Below, piece by piece: positions 4,066-29,762 of a stretch of 33,456 nucleotides of DNA (its first letter is position 1; the number at the start of each line of letters is the position of its first letter). The notes below the pieces were generated by a model. That model had not been told where the DNA came from. It searched no databases and saw only the letters and a list, made by a program, of their open reading frames with translations. A program made the position numbers and the translations under genes. This DNA comes from Clostridia bacterium. Lineage in GTDB: Bacteria > Bacillota > Clostridia > Oscillospirales > CAG-382. The stretch is taken from positions 1 through 33,456 of the forward strand of contig CAAEPN010000005.1 of assembly GCA_900757905.1 (NCBI GenBank), written 5' to 3'.

Positions 4066-5769
4066 TTATAACCAAAATGCTTCGGAATTGGTCAAGCCCT
4101 CCGTGAAAAACTCCGCCGTCTGAACCTGTTCGCCCACAAACGCATTCGGACGGCCGTTTGCATGCAGCATGCCGCGGTCAAACCATCCATAGCCGAATTG
4201 CCGCTCGTCCGCACCGTCGCACAATTTCCGGTCGACCATCATCGACACAACACGGGAACCCGCGTCCGCCTGCACGGTGACCTTATGCATGCCTTTATCC
4301 GAAAGCGGCGCTTTATCGGAATAAAAAACATTGGTTCTTCTTCCGTCGCTTAGGGTGAATATTATCTTTTCGCCGTCGAAGGCCGCCTCCATGCCCACAC
4401 GCTCTTGCGTCATGGTCGAGAACAGCACGCCGCTTTTGTCAAAATCGGCTTCAAGGAACAGACTGAAGCCTGCGCCGGTATCCACGGAATGGTTGTCGTT
4501 CGACGTGTGATCGCGTTCGATAAACGGTCGAAGCACCGGCATGGTACTGCCGTTTTTCAAAACGGTTCCGTGCTTTCGCTCGCCTTCTTTGTCAAACTGC
4601 GACCACAAGCCTTCGATAAGCGACTTTTCGGCCTTATGCGTTCTGGCGAGGCATTTCTGCGTTTCCGTAAAATAATACTCGCCGCCCTCTTCGATCATGT
4701 CCGGATAGCTCATCCGGATCATCACATCCGGGTCATATAACAGTATTTCCGACTGCGAGAATTTCAAGCGCATTCCGTCCGCCGCGGCATATTCCACCGC
4801 GCCCGAAAGCCATACCGGGTTGCGGTCGTCATACGTTTTGCCGCCATGGTTGTGGTACCAGTACAGGTACTTGCCGTTTTGGCACTTCCAGATGAAATTG
4901 GCCGCACGCGGATGCCGCATAGGGCGGCCGTCCGCATAGGTCATCTTTTCCGGCGCGGTAAAAGTATGTCCCTTATCCCGGCTGTAAGCGCAATAGGAAT
5001 TCCCGGAAACCGTGCGGAATACGCAGAAAATGCTTCCGTCGCTCAGCGTAACAAAGCTGTGCTCCTCGGAAACGTCGCTGACTTCACGCGGCACTTTGAT
5101 ACCGTGTTCGCCGTCAGGAAGCGTTTCCCAATGCAGCTTTGCAGCGTCCTTTTCCGTGTTGATGTTATCGCATTTTAAAAGAACGCCCTCCGTCTTGTAC
5201 ATAAACGTATCCTTTAAGCCGCCTATCTTATAAAGCGGAACAAAGGCGCTGTTATCTAACGTAAACGGCTTGCCGACATTCCAAAAATAGAGCACCTTGC
5301 CGCCGTATGGATTTGACCGGTCGGTTTCCATCACGCGCTGCGGAATTTCGTACCACTTATCCGACCAGGTTTTTCCGTTGTCATCGGTATATTTATAGAC
5401 AAACGAGCCTTGAGAATCCACGCGGTAGCACTTCTCATCCTCAAGCCAACCGGGATCGACTAACACGAACCGCCGGTTCTCGGCATTATAGTTATAAAAG
5501 CAGTACACTCTGCCATAGCTCGTTTTGTAGAGCACCGCATAGGAGGATTCCGGATTTTCCGGCGATTCGACGCAAACCGGCGCCGACCAGGTCTTTCCGC
5601 AGTCAAAGCTTTTGGCCGAGGTGATGTGCTGTCCCTTGCTGCCCTCGGTGCCTGCGCCCGTAGTCACTACCATTAACCAACCGCCGTCGTCGGTCTTTAC
5701 GACATACGGTTGATCGCTGTAATTGCTTACCGGAATGGGATCGCCGCTTCGAACATTTCTGTTATCCAT
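4066..5769 (-). CDS. Cytoplasmic BNR/Asp-box (sialidase-fold beta-propeller) protein with a C-terminal LamG/ConA-like domain
   Basis: Three Asp-box motifs (SFDCGKTW, TDDNGKTW, SRDKGHTF). No signal peptide (MDNRNVRSGDPIPV). The C-terminal ~170 aa are beta-rich and lectin-like. RBS AGAGG is present, and the gene starts 5 nt after the upstream gene's stop. Confidence 0.8.
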   Translation of the reverse strand: MDNRNVRSGDPIPVSNYSDQPYVVKTDDGGWLMVVTTGAGTEGSKGQHITSAKSFDCGKTWSAPVCVESPENPESSYAVLYKTSYGRVYCFYNYNAENRRFVLVDPGWLEDEKCYRVDSQGSFVYKYTDDNGKTWSDKWYEIPQRVMETDRSNPYGGKVLYFWNVGKPFTLDNSAFVPLYKIGGLKDTFMYKTEGVLLKCDNINTEKDAAKLHWETLPDGEHGIKVPREVSDVSEEHSFVTLSDGSIFCVFRTVSGNSYCAYSRDKGHTFTAPEKMTYADGRPMRHPRAANFIWKCQNGKYLYWYHNHGGKTYDDRNPVWLSGAVEYAAADGMRLKFSQSEILLYDPDVMIRMSYPDMIEEGGEYYFTETQKCLARTHKAEKSLIEGLWSQFDKEGERKHGTVLKNGSTMPVLRPFIERDHTSNDNHSVDTGAGFSLFLEADFDKSGVLFSTMTQERVGMEAAFDGEKIIFTLSDGRRTNVFYSDKAPLSDKGMHKVTVQADAGSRVVSMMVDRKLCDGADERQFGYGWFDRGMLHANGRPNAFVGEQVQTAEFFTEGLTNSEAFWL

Positions 5770-5774
5770 GTTTT

Positions 5775-6710
5775 CTACCTCTTGTTTTCAAAAAAATCGA
5801 TGACATTCTGCGCGGCGACAACGTCCATGCGAATAAAGATCTCTTTGGTGAAGGTGCCGACATGCGGCGTTAAAATCACATTGTCAAGCTCGCGTAAAAT
5901 ACTGTCTTCTTTCGGCTCACAGTCGAATACGTCGATAGCCGCACCGGCAATCTTCCCTTGCTTGACCGCCTGATACAGTCCGTTTTCATCGACGATCGGG
6001 CCTCTTGCCGTGTTGATAAGATAAGCGCTTTCTTTCATTTTGCAGATAGTCGGATAATCAAAGAATCCGCGCGTTTGCTCGGTAAGCGGCAGATGAACCG
6101 TCACAAAATCCGATTCGGCAAGTACCTCGTCAAAGCTTTTCCTTTCCGCGCCAAAAGCCTTTTCGGCTTTTTCGTTCGAAACGGCGTCATAATAAAGCAC
6201 GTTCATACCGAAAGCGCATGCGCGCCGTGCGGTTTCATACGCGATCTTTCCCATGCCGACAATGCCGAGCGTTTTTCCGAATACGCTGTGGCATTCGCAT
6301 CTTTCCCATCGGCCGTCATGCATATGCGCATTCAACACGCCAATTTTTCGCGAAAAGTCGAGAATATACGCCATGACAAGTTCCGCCACCGGCGGCTCCA
6401 CCACGCCGAGCGTCCTCGCCACCGCGATGTTCTTTTCGGCTGCATAATCAACGTCCACACTGTCAACGCCGACGCCGCGCCGGGAAATGATCTTCAGCTT
6501 TTTTGCCGCGTCGATGACATCTTTATTGATTCTTTCCAAATCGCATATCATAGCGTCGGCCTTAGCCGCATAAGGAATAATTTCTTCGGGTGTCAACGCC
6601 TTGTGCCCGTATGGATTGTCGATGACGCGATGGCCGGCCTTGCAGAGAAGCTCCCTTGCTTCGGGCGAAAATTTACCGAAATACTCGCTGGTAATCAAAA
6701 TGTCAGACAT
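5775..6710 (-). CDS. D-isomer-specific 2-hydroxyacid dehydrogenase (PGDH / glyoxylate-hydroxypyruvate reductase-like)
   Basis: NAD motif GIVGMGKIAYETARRA, plus TARGPIVDE and AAIDVFDCEP..LTPHVG. A strong GGAGGGAGG RBS precedes the start, which overlaps the dehydratase stop by 8 nt. Confidence 0.9.
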   Translation of the reverse strand: MSDILITSEYFGKFSPEARELLCKAGHRVIDNPYGHKALTPEEIIPYAAKADAMICDLERINKDVIDAAKKLKIISRRGVGVDSVDVDYAAEKNIAVARTLGVVEPPVAELVMAYILDFSRKIGVLNAHMHDGRWERCECHSVFGKTLGIVGMGKIAYETARRACAFGMNVLYYDAVSNEKAEKAFGAERKSFDEVLAESDFVTVHLPLTEQTRGFFDYPTICKMKESAYLINTARGPIVDENGLYQAVKQGKIAGAAIDVFDCEPKEDSILRELDNVILTPHVGTFTKEIFIRMDVVAAQNVIDFFENKR

Positions 6711-10525: not shown

Positions 10526-10846
10526 ATGAATCGCTATCAAAACATAATTAAGTACATACCTTTTTTCAATATAATTTGTGTTTTCCAATTGCTTGTCTGC
10601 CTTTTAAAAAACTCATTTTATATCCACGCCAAAGAAAAATACAGTGCCCTTTTTCGGCCAATGCTGGTATTACTCGGAATCAACATTCCGGTCATAATTG
10701 CCCGATATTATTTGACGAATGCAACTATTTTATACATCGTGAATTTCTTAGATGCTTTGATTTCTTTGTATGTTTGGGCCGAGCTATGCATAAGAGAGCA
10801 AAAACGCATTGAGGAGTTCAGTAAACAGTGTAAAACGACTCCGTGA
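10526..10846 (+). CDS. Small hypothetical membrane protein (about 3 TM segments, charged C-terminal tail)
   Basis: GAGGT RBS 8 nt before the ATG. Hydrophobic stretches IPFFNIICVFQLLVCLL, PMLVLLGINIPVIIARYYL and ILYIVNFLDALISLYVWAELCI, then REQKRIEEFSKQCKTTP. I recognise no family. Confidence 0.6.
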   Translation: MNRYQNIIKYIPFFNIICVFQLLVCLLKNSFYIHAKEKYSALFRPMLVLLGINIPVIIARYYLTNATILYIVNFLDALISLYVWAELCIREQKRIEEFSKQCKTTP

Positions 10847-10865
10847 TATGCTTTGAGGAGGCATT

Positions 10866-11888
10866 ATGAATCACTTTACAACCAAATTAGCCAACTCCTT
10901 GAATTTTTTGAACCATGTAGCAGCCTGCAAGAATTACAGTGAGTACGCGGAAACAGTTGTACACAGTTCCTTTTATCAAACTCTATTGGATCGTTACATG
11001 AAGAACGACGCTTATTTCAAGGATGAAGTTCAAAAAATGCTTGACCCGGTAACCGGCTTGGTTTCGGAAAAAGACTTTGAAAAAATAAAGGAGTATGCCG
11101 CTTGCTGCCGCGGAATGCAGAAACAGGCGGAAGAGGAGGCGTTGGAGGAAATCGAAGACCTGAAACACAGCCCCAATGCCGATATAAGGCAGCTTGCCGA
11201 ATGCGCCGAGGACTGGTTTTATGATATGAAGATAACGCGCTGTACAGTGGATTCGGAAAACGTGGTTGATCTTGCTATTCCAAGCGATTGCGGCACAAAA
11301 CAATGCGTCATGCAGTTCCGGAACATTGTCCCATTAAACGAAGAAAAAATCGAACAATGTACCGGCTGTGTGGTAACGGAAATTGAGTTTCGGAAAACCG
11401 ATGACGGTTCTTATACATTGGAGCTTGACTTGGTTAACAGTGCAAAAGGAAAACTCATGACGGTCAGATTTGAATTCAAAGATATTCATGTGGAGATTTT
11501 GCCGTATAAACCGGTTGATCCATGGGATAAATATGACCAAAGTTCCAATGATAATATACGGAAACTCGCGGAATGTGCGCAAAGTTGGTTTGTCGGAGCC
11601 GAAATTACTTATTTTGCTGAAAGTCCAAAAAACGATGTTTCTTTTGTTTTATCCGCGCGCGGCGGCAAGAAAAAATGTCGGCTGAAATTCCGAAACCGTG
11701 AACCGTTGGACAAGAATTTGATTTTAAAATGCGTAGGGAATCAAGTGTTTTCTCCCTCACTTTCCGAGAATGAAGCGGGTTACTATGAATTGAAATTTCT
11801 TGCATGGAACGAGTGCAAAATACCGGTAGAACCGGTATCTTCTTGGAAATTTGAGTTCAAAAATATCTTGGTTGACATCATGGGATGA
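10866..11888 (+). CDS. Hypothetical cytoplasmic protein with two tandem ~110-aa repeats
   Basis: GAGGAGG RBS. Repeat 1 begins DIRQLAECAEDWF, contains KQCVMQFRN and ends RFEFKDIHVEIL. Repeat 2 begins NIRKLAECAQSWF, contains KKCRLKFRN and ends KFEFKNILVDIM. No signal peptide and no catalytic motif I recognise. Confidence 0.75.
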   Translation: MNHFTTKLANSLNFLNHVAACKNYSEYAETVVHSSFYQTLLDRYMKNDAYFKDEVQKMLDPVTGLVSEKDFEKIKEYAACCRGMQKQAEEEALEEIEDLKHSPNADIRQLAECAEDWFYDMKITRCTVDSENVVDLAIPSDCGTKQCVMQFRNIVPLNEEKIEQCTGCVVTEIEFRKTDDGSYTLELDLVNSAKGKLMTVRFEFKDIHVEILPYKPVDPWDKYDQSSNDNIRKLAECAQSWFVGAEITYFAESPKNDVSFVLSARGGKKKCRLKFRNREPLDKNLILKCVGNQVFSPSLSENEAGYYELKFLAWNECKIPVEPVSSWKFEFKNILVDIMG

Positions 11889-11927
11889 ATGCTTCACATA
11901 GTATCAAATTCCAATATTACAAGAAAA

Positions 11928-11966
11928 GCGCAGTCTACTTTTTTTCGCAGACTGCGCTTTTTTTGC
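11928..11966. terminator. Bidirectional intrinsic terminator between the island and the his operon
   Basis: AGCGCAGTCT (11928-11937) pairs with AGACTGCGCT (11950-11959). A T7 run follows and an A-run precedes. Confidence 0.7.
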
Positions 11967-12014
11967 GCGGTTTCAGAACAAATTCAAGCCTTCTTACAGC
12001 ATCCGCCCAAAGGC

Positions 12015-12773
12015 TTAAAAGGTTTCGCATATGTTATTTATTCTTATATCGCCGAACCCAAAGCACAAATTTTCTGCACTGTGCGCGTCGCTGGACAAAA
12101 TAAACTTTCCGCCGAGACTTGCAATTTTCCTTATAAGATCTTCACCCGGATACGGCGTTTTTCGGTATCCGCGAGATACCGCACCGGTGTTTATCTCAAA
12201 CGGAACGCCATATTGCACAAGATCTTCGATCGCACGGTACGCGCATTCTTTGTACCGGTCATTGTTTTCATCAAAAAATCTTCCGCCCTCATTGAATTTT
12301 GATACAAGGTCAAAATGCCCAATGATATCGGCCCCCGTCTTCCCCACCACATGCGACACAAGCTGAAAATATTCCTTTGCCAGAGCATAATAATCGCCGC
12401 CGAACTTGTTTTCTGCAAGCGCCTTGAAATTTTCCGCACTCTCGTCCACCGAAAAGTATTCGCCGCCGATCTTGATATAATGCACCGAACCGATGACATA
12501 ATCGCAGCCGCTGTCCGCCGTATCGGAAAAATAGTCTTTTTCGACGCCTTTGAATATTTCGATCTTTCCGTGGTATTTTTCGCGCAGACGGTCGATTTCA
12601 TCACAAAAAGCGGTTTCATTTCCCTTTTTGATACAGCATTCCTCGTCAAACGGCACATACGAATGATAGACCAACCCGATTTTTCCCATATGAAGCTTTA
12701 TCGCCGCCAGAATCATTTCTTCGGGCGAATTTTTGCCGTCACAAAAACAGGTATGGACGTGAAAATCATTCAT
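12015..12773 (-). CDS. hisJ: Histidinol-phosphatase, PHP family
   Basis: Starts [20 protein letters not shown] (PHP metal-binding HxH), with later GHFD and SDAHS motifs. The start overlaps the hisIE stop (ATGA). Confidence 0.85.
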
Positions 12774-13429
12774 TTTGTCATTTTCTCCTGCTTCACCTTG
12801 TGGTCGATGACATTGCGCGACGCAAGCTCATACTGAATATCGCGAAGACTGATTCCCGTGTGCGCCATGAGCACCAAAACATGATAGCACAGGTCGGCTA
12901 TTTCGTAGATCGTTTCTTTTTTGTCCTCCGCTTTCGCCGCGATAATCACTTCGGTACTTTCCTCTCCCACTTTTTTGAGGATTTTGTCTAATCCTTTTTC
13001 AAAAAGATAGGTCGTGTACGACCCCTCTTTCATCTCTTTTTTGCGGTCAAGAAGAAGATTCATGAGCTTAGAAAGCGAAAATTCGGTCATCGTATCATCG
13101 TGACAAACCGTGTTGGTAAAGCAGCTTTCCGTACCGGTATGGCACGCAGGGCCATCCTTTTCCACAATAACGTTTAACGCGTCGTAATCGCAGTCTGCTG
13201 TAATCGATACAATATGCTGATAATTTCCGCTTGTTTCGCCCTTTGTCCAAAGCGTGTTTCTCGAACGGCTCCAAAAGCAGGTAAGGCCCTTTTCGATCGA
13301 CTTTTCAAGGCTTTCTCTGTTCATATACGCAAGCGTGAGCACATCTTTTGTGATGTTGTCGGTCACGATAGCCGGGATAAGCCCCTTTTCGTCAAATTTT
13401 AATTTGTTGATATCAAAATCACACTTCAT
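12770..13429 (-). CDS. hisI: Bifunctional phosphoribosyl-AMP cyclohydrolase / phosphoribosyl-ATP pyrophosphatase
   Basis: HisI half: [31 protein letters not shown]. HisE half: [30 protein letters not shown]. Confidence 0.95.
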
Positions 13430-21106: not shown

Positions 21107-21136
21107 AAACGCGGAGAATTTACATTCTCCGCGTTT
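21107..21136. terminator. Terminator hairpin, left copy of a duplicated 30-mer
   Basis: AAACGCGGAGAATTTACATTCTCCGCGTTT. The stem is GCGGAGAAT/ATTCTCCGC with an A-run upstream. It matches 21328-21357 at 29 of 30 positions. Confidence 0.75.
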
Positions 21137-21327
21137 GAGCGTGTCGCAAAACTTCGTTTTACGACACGGAAACAGATTCGTGCGCTCGCGCCTCATGCCA
21201 AAAAGCTCCGCTTTTCGACACTTGCGAATCTATCGGTGAAAAATCCGTGGCGCATGTCCCCGGATTTTTCGTTTTTTATTGAACTCGGCTTCGCCCGAAA
21301 AGCCTCATAGACTTTTGCAACAATCTG
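21137..21327 (+). repeat. 191-bp interspersed structured element, copy 1 (putative non-autonomous mobile element or RNA module)
   Basis: Manual alignment to the reverse complement of 27363-27553 gives 14 differences (11 substitutions, 3 indel positions) over 191 bp. Internal hairpins include a bidirectional terminator-like stem AAAAATCCG/CGGATTTTT (21239-21269). Confidence 0.9.
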
Positions 21328-21357
21328 AAACGCGGAGAATTTAAATTCTCCGCGTTT
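21328..21357. terminator. Terminator hairpin, right copy of the duplicated 30-mer
   Basis: AAACGCGGAGAATTTAAATTCTCCGCGTTT followed by TTTA. It lies 14 nt past the stop of the convergent 927-aa gene. Confidence 0.75.
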
Positions 21358-21370
21358 TTATCGTTACATT

Positions 21371-27330: not shown

Positions 27331-27362
27331 AGTCCTGTCGCACTTATTCTTGCGACAGGACT
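27331..27362. terminator. Terminator hairpin, left copy of a duplicated 32-mer
   Basis: AGTCCTGTCGCACTTATTCTTGCGACAGGACT, preceded by AAAA. It matches 27554-27585 at 30 of 32 positions. Confidence 0.75.
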
Positions 27363-27553
27363 CAGACCGCTGCAAAAGTCTATAAGGCTTTTCGGGCGAA
27401 GCCCGATTTCAATAAAAACGAAAAATCCGGGGACATGCGCCACGGATTTTTCGCCGATCGATTCGCGAGTGTCGAAAAGCGGAGCTTTTTGGCATGAGGC
27501 GCGAGCGCGCGAATCTGTTTCCGTGCCGTAAAACGTAGTTTTACGACACGCTC
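27363..27553 (-). repeat. 191-bp interspersed structured element, copy 2 (inverted relative to copy 1)
   Basis: The reverse complement GAGCGTGTCGTAAAAC...GCAGCGGTCTG aligns end to end with 21137-21327. The internal terminator-like hairpin is at 27421-27451. Confidence 0.9.
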
Positions 27554-27585
27554 AGTCCTGTCGCACTTATCCTTGCGGCAGGACT
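27554..27585. terminator. Terminator hairpin, right copy of the duplicated 32-mer
   Basis: AGTCCTGTCGCACTTATCCTTGCGGCAGGACT followed by TGAATTTT. It lies 23 nt past the maa stop. Confidence 0.75.
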
Positions 27586-29661: not shown

Positions 29662-29762
29662 GTCTTTTCACAAAAATTTTCAACTTTTTTGTATGGGGAA
29701 CGAAGTTTTGCAACACGCACATAAAAACCGCTTTTTCCCAAGCGAAATTTGTGAAAAAAGGT

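Follow-up and report, generated by a model that had tools for sequence, protein, structure and literature searches.

The insertion sequence (IS) IS1272, a member of the IS1182 family, inserts into 22-30 bp terminator or inverted-repeat hairpins without sequence specificity, and it deletes the hairpin without producing a duplication (PMC4923244, PMC5678879). In pathway b of Wan et al. (2017), joining at the 5' feet of the cruciform is predicted to duplicate the whole stem-loop (PMC5678879, Fig 13). Here, we describe a 191-bp element found in a 33,456-nt stretch of DNA from an uncultured Clostridia bacterium (GenBank assembly GCA_900757905.1, contig CAAEPN010000005.1, positions 1 to 33,456; hereafter the window). 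It is present twice, each time between two direct copies of a complete terminator hairpin, and it is a MITE (miniature inverted-repeat transposable element), a non-coding derivative whose 17-bp terminal inverted repeats (TIRs) are imperfect. We estimate at about 0.6 the probability that the enzyme moving this MITE in trans is a DDE transposase that belongs to the IS1182 family or is close to it.

A mobile core between duplicated hairpins

At the first position (site 1), two 30-mers at 21107-21136 (AAACGCGGAGAATTTACATTCTCCGCGTTT) and 21328-21357 are the same at 29 of 30 positions and directly abut the 191-bp core at 21137-21327 (plus strand). Each of them folds as a full hairpin with a 13-bp stem (-18.5 kcal/mol). 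A second copy of the core lies on the minus strand at 27363-27553 (site 2); it is 92.7% identical to the first, and in the alignment the similarity ends exactly at the core boundaries, which are equally sharp against 16 further copies. Copy 2 is flanked by another hairpin of 32 bp, unlike that of site 1, whose copies at 27331-27362 (right-hand in element orientation, AGTCCTGTCGCAAGAATAAGTGCGACAGGACT on the minus strand) and 27554-27585 (left-hand) are the same at 30 of 32 positions. The two 30-mers and the core, as first reported in the initial annotation of this DNA, proved exact in coordinates and sequence on re-reading, and the inverted second core with its different duplicated hairpin was recovered as described there. 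Both sites lie between convergent genes, encoding a SASP (plus) and an SLH/transglutaminase protein (minus) at site 1, and a ClpP/NfeD-like protein (plus) and a Mac-type acetyltransferase (minus) at site 2. The remaining genes of the window are housekeeping genes, and no transposase, recombinase or cas1 is found among them.

Empty sites were searched for in contigs encoding exactly the same SASP protein (site 1) or the same acetyltransferase (site 2). At site 1, three contigs (L080-L082) have a 100-nt intergenic gap with one hairpin, of loop TTAA, and the others are filled; at site 2, one empty allele (L095, 64-nt gap, one hairpin) was found against nine filled ones. The filled alleles exceed the empty ones by 223 nt at both sites, which corresponds to the core plus one hairpin (at site 1, 191 + 30 + 2, the last being two extra T). 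Moreover, twenty contigs from two sister lineages lack the element of site 2 and have one hairpin each, and in another locus of the family, L002, an uninterrupted paralogous terminator constitutes an internal empty site. As the empty sites of conspecific strains hold a single hairpin at each of the two window positions, it is the core that moved, and the hairpin is its target-site duplication. This is what had been proposed from the two window copies alone, with the flanks taken as site-specific. A tandem terminator predating the core, named at the time as a case that would contradict the proposal, is removed as an alternative, since a double hairpin without the core was seen neither in the conspecific empty alleles nor in the 20 sister-lineage contigs.

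The family was surveyed with a 22-mer from the core in species-representative genomes, with a left-end scan of metagenomes and then with a profile search. The 22-mer identified 16 loci, 15 in a single metagenome-assembled genome (MAG; 'uncultured Eubacteriales' CAKSOW01) and one in UMGS882, all of them full-length copies with 93-96% identity. The left-end scan gave 53 further true matches, many cut by contig ends as expected of a repeat, and also revealed subfamilies at 82-89% identity; nine of the 62 hits in metagenomes were discarded as 19-mers matched by chance in unrelated, high-GC DNA. Full-length hits of the profile search had 28 unique flank combinations, one being a near-duplicate of window site 2; L077 was added by hand, and the resulting set comprises 27 unique insertion sites. 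A complete hairpin is duplicated at 20 of these 27 sites, with a different sequence at every site, and the flanking repeats expected around other copies are thus present. Since the same arrangement recurs so often, it did not arise by chance in the window. Across ~670 kb of DNA from these genomes, no other sequence was seen to lie between duplicated hairpins.

Copies without matching flanks are either truncated or derived from short-read assemblies (L004, L046, L054, L078). The latter four are more likely to be short-read mis-joins or recombinants across the 193-bp repeat than true exceptions; in L054, the hairpin on the right equals the one on the left of another copy from the same sample. 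Chimeric flanks of this sort, in which the right hairpin belongs to one site and the left hairpin to another, are seen in L046 (3574-3765, compared with L009 5831-6022) and in L054 (compared with L040 13496-13579), and they point either to copies that recombined, and hence to a rearranged genome, or to mis-joined short reads. Two tandem copies with a common middle hairpin were observed in MAG CAKSOW01 (L007 1-301, compared with L058 3235-3490), and another assembly of this site has one copy; this could stem from a further insertion into an already duplicated hairpin, from unequal recombination or from an artefact of assembly. The locus L040, which looked like a left end followed by 3 kb of cargo, turned out to be a copy truncated at 67 nt and followed by host genes for an EamA transporter and a phosphoglycerate mutase. 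The consensus matched nothing in plasmid and phage collections (blastn, distant mode), and of two scans of viral contigs with both termini, one was empty and the other gave a single chance hit in a phage coding sequence (L017).

The core measures 191-193 bp across copies. As initially annotated, it holds no open reading frame (ORF) of at least 60 aa, and the short ORFs that it does hold are not maintained from one subfamily to the next. Its ends had been described as lacking terminal inverted repeats, a statement that does not hold: the left TIR GAGCGTGTCGCAAAACT (21137-21153, plus strand) and the right TIR (21311-21327, minus strand; reverse complement CAGATTGTTGCAAAAGT) pair at 12 of 17 positions (P ~2e-4), and those of subfamily L048 at 13 of 17 (P ~3.5e-5). 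According to folding predictions, the left TIR is the first arm of a subterminal hairpin at 21140-21168 (plus strand; GTGTCGCAAAAC-TTC-GTTTTACGACAC), as is also the case for the left end of ISClbu1, an IS1182-family element discussed later. A central hairpin, GAAAAATCCG...CGGATTTTTC (21238-21279, plus strand; -14.9 kcal/mol), has an invariant loop, GTGGCRCATGTCCCC, and is followed by a T-run, so that it looks like an intrinsic terminator read on the plus strand. In subfamilies L032, L048, L055 and L077, the stem stays paired through compensatory changes (AAATCG/CGATTT and ATTTG/CAAGT); these changes go back to only ~2 independent events, and the covariation evidence is therefore modest. The minus strand is predicted to fold far better than the plus strand (z -4.6 vs -2.5; consensus -64.3 vs -43.0 kcal/mol), with conserved G.U/G.T pairs, which hints at a single-stranded state of the element, as RNA or as DNA. 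The Rfam check suggested in the initial annotation gave no family that explains the core: at the gathering threshold the whole window has no hit (best sub-threshold match 24 bits vs a cut-off of 51), and an E-value scan of the locus returned sub-threshold noise alone.

These data bear on a reading without transposition, in which the core was placed between pre-existing tandem terminators or is a host structured RNA gene spread by recombination. Some structural covariation and the invariant hairpin loop are in its favour, as is the 93-98% identity of copies between genomes that show just 78% identity in their orthologous genes. However, empty alleles have one hairpin, never two, and the single-hairpin empty sites largely refute this reading; in addition, the hairpin differs at each site, TIRs are present, no Rfam family matches and insertions are polymorphic within species. 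We therefore hold it to be extremely improbable. The high identity of the copies, together with the polymorphism within species, indicates that the family has recently been active and has crossed species. Thus, the element has the traits of a MITE: a length below ~500 bp, no transposase gene, TIRs, a site-variable duplication, several copies and presence/absence polymorphism. A duplication of 23-34 bp is atypical for this class.

Target hairpins and a proposed route of insertion

At the 20 sites with a duplication, the duplicated unit measures 23-34 bp (median 29) and is a hairpin from its first to its last base; the maximal stem reaches just 0-3 bp past it. On either strand, the joint with the element lies immediately 5' of the stem's first base, and the unit is the whole hairpin whatever its size, in agreement with the earlier suggestion of cuts at both hairpin bases. 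The duplicated units are hairpins at gene 3' ends. They have no common sequence apart from a preferred first A (first base of the right flank at 23 of 29 sites) and last T (last base of the left flank at 28 of 29). Target duplications are usually of a fixed few bp, set by the geometry of the transposase active site, and a length that follows each hairpin is hard to reconcile with a fixed protein ruler acting on B-form DNA. A duplication length set by the secondary structure of the target is clean natural evidence for shape-directed target choice. The length by itself is less exceptional than the initial annotation held when it placed it beyond ordinary IS transposition: long IS duplications are not unknown, ISfinder listing direct repeats of 0-60 bp for IS1182 and long repeats for IS1634/IS1549.

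The targets are Rho-independent terminator hairpins at gene 3' ends, recognised by shape because their sequences have nothing in common but the first A and the last T. We propose that a transposase encoded elsewhere would act on the MITE ends. The palindrome would be engaged in an extruded form, cruciform or hairpin, in which a four-way junction brings the two feet side by side. Both 3' ends of the element would then join just 5' of the first stem base, one on each strand; in linear DNA, this polarity would amount to a 5' stagger of 23-34 nt, the whole length of the hairpin. Finally, repair of the gaps would copy the hairpin to either side of the element.

Two other known types of enzyme were considered. 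The initial annotation had compared the duplication with the work of a Cas1-type (casposase-like) integrase, which would make staggered cuts beside the palindrome as in CRISPR repeat duplication. The duplicated palindrome is of CRISPR-repeat size and the geometry formally equals that of repeat duplication at spacer integration, but the TIRs are of DDE type and resemble IS1182 ends, the duplication length follows the size of each hairpin instead of a fixed ruler, and the sites bear no sequence relation to one another. The duplications made by casposons measure 14-15 bp and occur at specific sites. With neither cas1 nor any transposase or recombinase gene in the window, the analogy is left without evidence, and we regard a Cas1-type enzyme as highly improbable. 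Nor is Cas1 the nearest precedent: IS1182-family DDE elements such as IS1272 and ISClbu1, which target terminator hairpins and have similar termini, are closer (PMC4923244, PMC5678879).

The second type is an HUH single-strand transposase. The MITE would in this case be a palindrome-associated derivative of IS200/IS605 type that inserts into hairpins on single-stranded DNA by means of its subterminal hairpins, and its richness in hairpins, its much better folding on one strand and the conserved G.U/G.T pairs would suit such a lifestyle. IS200/IS605 elements have no TIRs and make no target duplication, and their insertion point lies 3' of a fixed motif of 4-5 nt. In contrast, TIRs and a long duplication are present here and the targets share nothing beyond A...T; neither a conserved tetra- or pentanucleotide at one junction nor a tnpA (Y1) partner was seen. 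An origin of this type is very unlikely.

The two hairpin copies of a site are not always the same, and where the empty allele is known they differ despite identical flanks. At site 2, the left-hand copy (27554-27585) is identical to the empty-site hairpin, and the right copy (27331-27362, ClpP side) has two changes from it, C8->T and one change in the loop. The former repairs a C.A mismatch in the stem, where the pair had been lost earlier in the lineage by G25->A; the sister lineages (L135-L144) keep C8-G25. At site 1, there is one loop change in the left copy, the right copy has the TTAA loop of the empty-site hairpin, and five T follow the right copy (21355-21362) vs three in L080-L082. 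The two extra T could come from slippage during repair or from a pre-existing polymorphism of the T-tract. In L002, the copies at 4774-4802 and 4996-5024 differ solely in that the loop is inverted, with AAA in the left copy against TTT in the right one; as the uninterrupted paralogous terminator 1.7 kb away (6675-6704) has TTT, the left copy is the altered one. An inversion of this kind is a signature of template switching within a hairpin. From these three cases we suspect, speculatively, that error-prone or template-switching repair takes place over a hairpin-forming gap.

That the element is moved by a structure-specific integrase not yet described, either from a distinct IS1182-related clade with inverted attack polarity or an unrelated cruciform-recognising enzyme that cuts both 5' feet, is a reading that we consider quite unlikely. 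Were it true, the system would be a transposon counterpart of repeat duplication by Cas1-Cas2, each insertion would be a natural record of the extrusion of a terminator cruciform in vivo, and the loop inversion and the arm-to-arm correction would be signatures of repair synthesis over a hairpin-forming gap.

Resemblance to IS1182-family ends

Termini of the IS1182 family were read from plasmids and genomes, including those of IS1272 (GAGTCTGGGACATAAA), ISSau3 (GAGGCTGGGACATAAA), ISClbu1 (GGGGCTGTATCAAAAC) and copies from E. faecalis (GGGGCTGACCCAAAAG) and L. plantarum (GAGGCTGTGACATAAG), and a position weight matrix (PWM) was built from five elements. On this matrix, the left terminus of the MITE (GAGCGTGTCGCAAAAC) scores 7.6 bits and the right terminus of subfamily L048 (CAGACTGTCGCAAAAG) 8.0 bits. 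These scores lie in the top 0.014-0.018% of 65,722 background 16-mers (mean -16.4, standard deviation 6.6), the left end at 0.018%.

The MITE also shares with ISClbu1 the architecture of its ends, which begin with ~4 nt followed by a hairpin that has the inverted repeat (IR) as its first arm. In Clostridium butyricum genomes (L106-L112), copies of ISClbu1 lie between convergent genes, within palindromes, and the flank on one side repeats that on the other in inverted orientation, as in ATATAGATAAA on the left and TTTATCTATAT on the right of the IS. Because the flanks are mutually inverted, the IS sits inside a hairpin that has lost its apex. We found no description of such an insertion for ISClbu1, and it agrees with the reports on IS1272. 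At the right end of ISClbu1, two inverted IR copies form a long hairpin. In four other assemblies (L116-L119, positions 1-1000), the left end of an ISClbu1-like element (P0051) abuts, at the same site in all four, a group II intron reverse-transcriptase gene (RVT_1, GIIM); the left IR of P0051 could not be located. The IS1182 family and the MITE thus have the same target class and the same end design, and the opposite outcome at the target.

Several observations weigh against an IS1182-type enzyme. True members of the family score 9-20 bits in leave-one-out tests, above the MITE ends, and the commonest right end of the MITE reaches just 1.2 bits; the matrix comes from five elements only, and related families such as IS5 could have similar termini. 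A tblastn query with the IS1272 transposase detected no IS1182-type enzyme, of the kind with DUF772, DDE_Tnp_1 and DDE_Tnp_1_6 domains, either in the window or across ~670 kb of related loci, and a search for ISClbu1 homologues returned thousands of IS1182 transposases, none of which could be linked to these hosts. A longer element with this left end was not met in the genome and metagenome scans, although the contig behind many of the hits stops ~50 nt into the repeat. Assemblies from short reads are interrupted within it, and the scans thus do not show that a partner is absent. Finally, the full-length family members that we inspected (IS1272, ISSau3, ISClbu1 and others) delete part of the hairpin or show no long duplication, hairpin duplication being seen in none of them, and ISPse1 makes a 4-bp repeat.

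In a rival reading, the MITE would be moved by a structure-specific transposase of another family, DDE or undescribed, with the likeness to IS1182 being due to convergence or distant kinship. For such an enzyme speak the lack of a partner in the scans, the deletions made at hairpins by all sampled IS1182 members and a PWM match at the weak end of the family range. However, the terminal motif, the architecture of the end hairpins and the target class all point to IS1182, and in the literature we found no other bacterial IS family documented to target terminator hairpins independently of sequence. We judge another family to be rather unlikely, and we infer from the ends and the targets that an IS1182-type or closely related transposase is the better candidate.

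Probable effects on host genes and comparison with known systems

At the filled sites, each gene keeps its proximal hairpin, and its U-tract is cut to 0-3 U; the earlier remark that the gene-proximal hairpins are parted from most of their U-tract is confirmed by these junctions. Because of this truncation, read-through into the element is plausible. Judging from the sequence, transcripts would probably enter the element and stop at the terminator-like hairpin on its plus strand or at the distal hairpin copy, which has the full U-tract. The plus strand of the element tends to have the same direction as the T-rich side of the target (13 vs 4 sites, p = 0.049), a bias that fits, weakly, with selection for retained termination. 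The element doubles terminators and strips U-tracts, and it would in this way rewire 3' ends and add a structured 3' untranslated region common to convergent genes. In abundant uncultured gut Clostridia, it also breaks short-read assemblies and may seed recombination between copies.

The terminator of the Mac-type acetyltransferase gene is filled in the same orientation in two genomes that are 78% identical (27363-27553 in the window; L013 2423-2605). The hairpins differ and the sister lineages are empty, so these two insertions are independent; this terminator could be a hot spot, or the event a coincidence of ~2-4%. The L013 copy is a truncated one that stops near position 181, exactly where synteny is lost.

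A 20-nt relic resembling the left end of the element (19 of 20 positions, BLAST E = 0.001) lies on the minus strand at 29699-29718, in the promoter region of a Cu_amine_oxidN1/CAP gene, and adjoins a terminator-like hairpin at 29728-29745. The orthologous spot of a related genome carries a derivative of ~61 nt (L013 131-191, nhmmer E = 5.7e-7; also L052 2284-2328), in which 45 nt of the left end are fused to a right terminus ending in ...ACAATCTG. Relic and mini-derivative represent an old insertion that decayed differently in two species.

Four ORFs of unknown function at 10526-12836 were considered as transposase candidates and rejected. Those at 10526-11888 (plus strand) encode a membrane-like protein of 106 aa and a protein of 340 aa made of two similar halves, without Pfam or NCBIfam match; the internally repeated 340-aa protein has no transposase signature. 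Their DNA is 89-91% identical to that of the other species, where the two are non-adjacent (L039 534-856 and 3166-4179), vs a background of 78%, and they may have been transferred horizontally. The ORFs of 137 and 173 aa at 11889-12836 (plus strand) are antisense artefacts of a minus-strand gene at 12015-12773, whose 252-aa product is, from a reading of its motifs, a putative PHP-type histidinol phosphatase.

Other mobile elements use extragenic palindromes or terminators as safe havens, such as IS1397/ISKpn1 in REP sequences, IS110/IS1111 elements and group IIC introns at terminators. They have a defined insertion point in or after the hairpin, with a short or no duplication, and their enzymes are IS3-type DDE transposases, DEDD enzymes with a guide RNA or reverse transcriptases. 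Described bacterial MITEs (Correia/NEMIS, RUP, bcr1, MITEAba12 and others) are, like the present element, small, non-coding, multi-copy, intergenic, rich in hairpins, polymorphic and bounded by TIRs. However, they make fixed duplications of 2-9 bp, whereas here 23-34 bp are duplicated as set by the secondary structure of the target. CRISPR repeat duplication by Cas1-Cas2 and casposon insertion resemble the present case in that a palindrome of ~30 bp is duplicated around an insert through staggered end attacks; in contrast to these systems, no cas1, leader or array accompanies the element, its targets are terminators that are unrelated to one another and lie throughout the genome, and the insert is one constant 191-bp element with TIRs.

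Within the IS1182 family, IS1272/TnSha1 of Staphylococcus has the same kind of target as the MITE, sequence-independent 22-30 bp terminator or inverted-repeat hairpins at gene 3' ends; both termini start with GAG and share 8-9 of 16 positions, and the ends can form stem-loops. IS1272 is autonomous, with ~1.9 kb and a DDE transposase of 548-560 aa, unlike the non-coding 191-bp MITE, and it removes part or all of the hairpin, which the MITE keeps and duplicates. The closest termini are those of ISClbu1, with 11 of 16 positions in common, and its host likewise belongs to the class Clostridia. It resembles the MITE in having the IR as first arm of a subterminal hairpin and in lying in palindromes between convergent genes, but it is 1829 bp long, carries a transposase gene and leaves mutually inverted flanks around a lost hairpin apex, without direct duplication.

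Thus, MITEs and hairpin-targeting IS1182 elements were both known, and neither the duplicating outcome nor a MITE showing it was found in the literature searched. With a 191-bp substrate and simple hairpins as targets, this element offers a tractable system for studying how IS1182-type enzymes recognise hairpins, whether a cruciform is needed and what decides between deletion and duplication. The structure predicted for pathway b, a hypothetical branch that was drawn to contrast with IS1272 and for which no natural example was given (PMC5678879), is the one seen here, and the element realises an outcome that had previously been drawn solely on paper.

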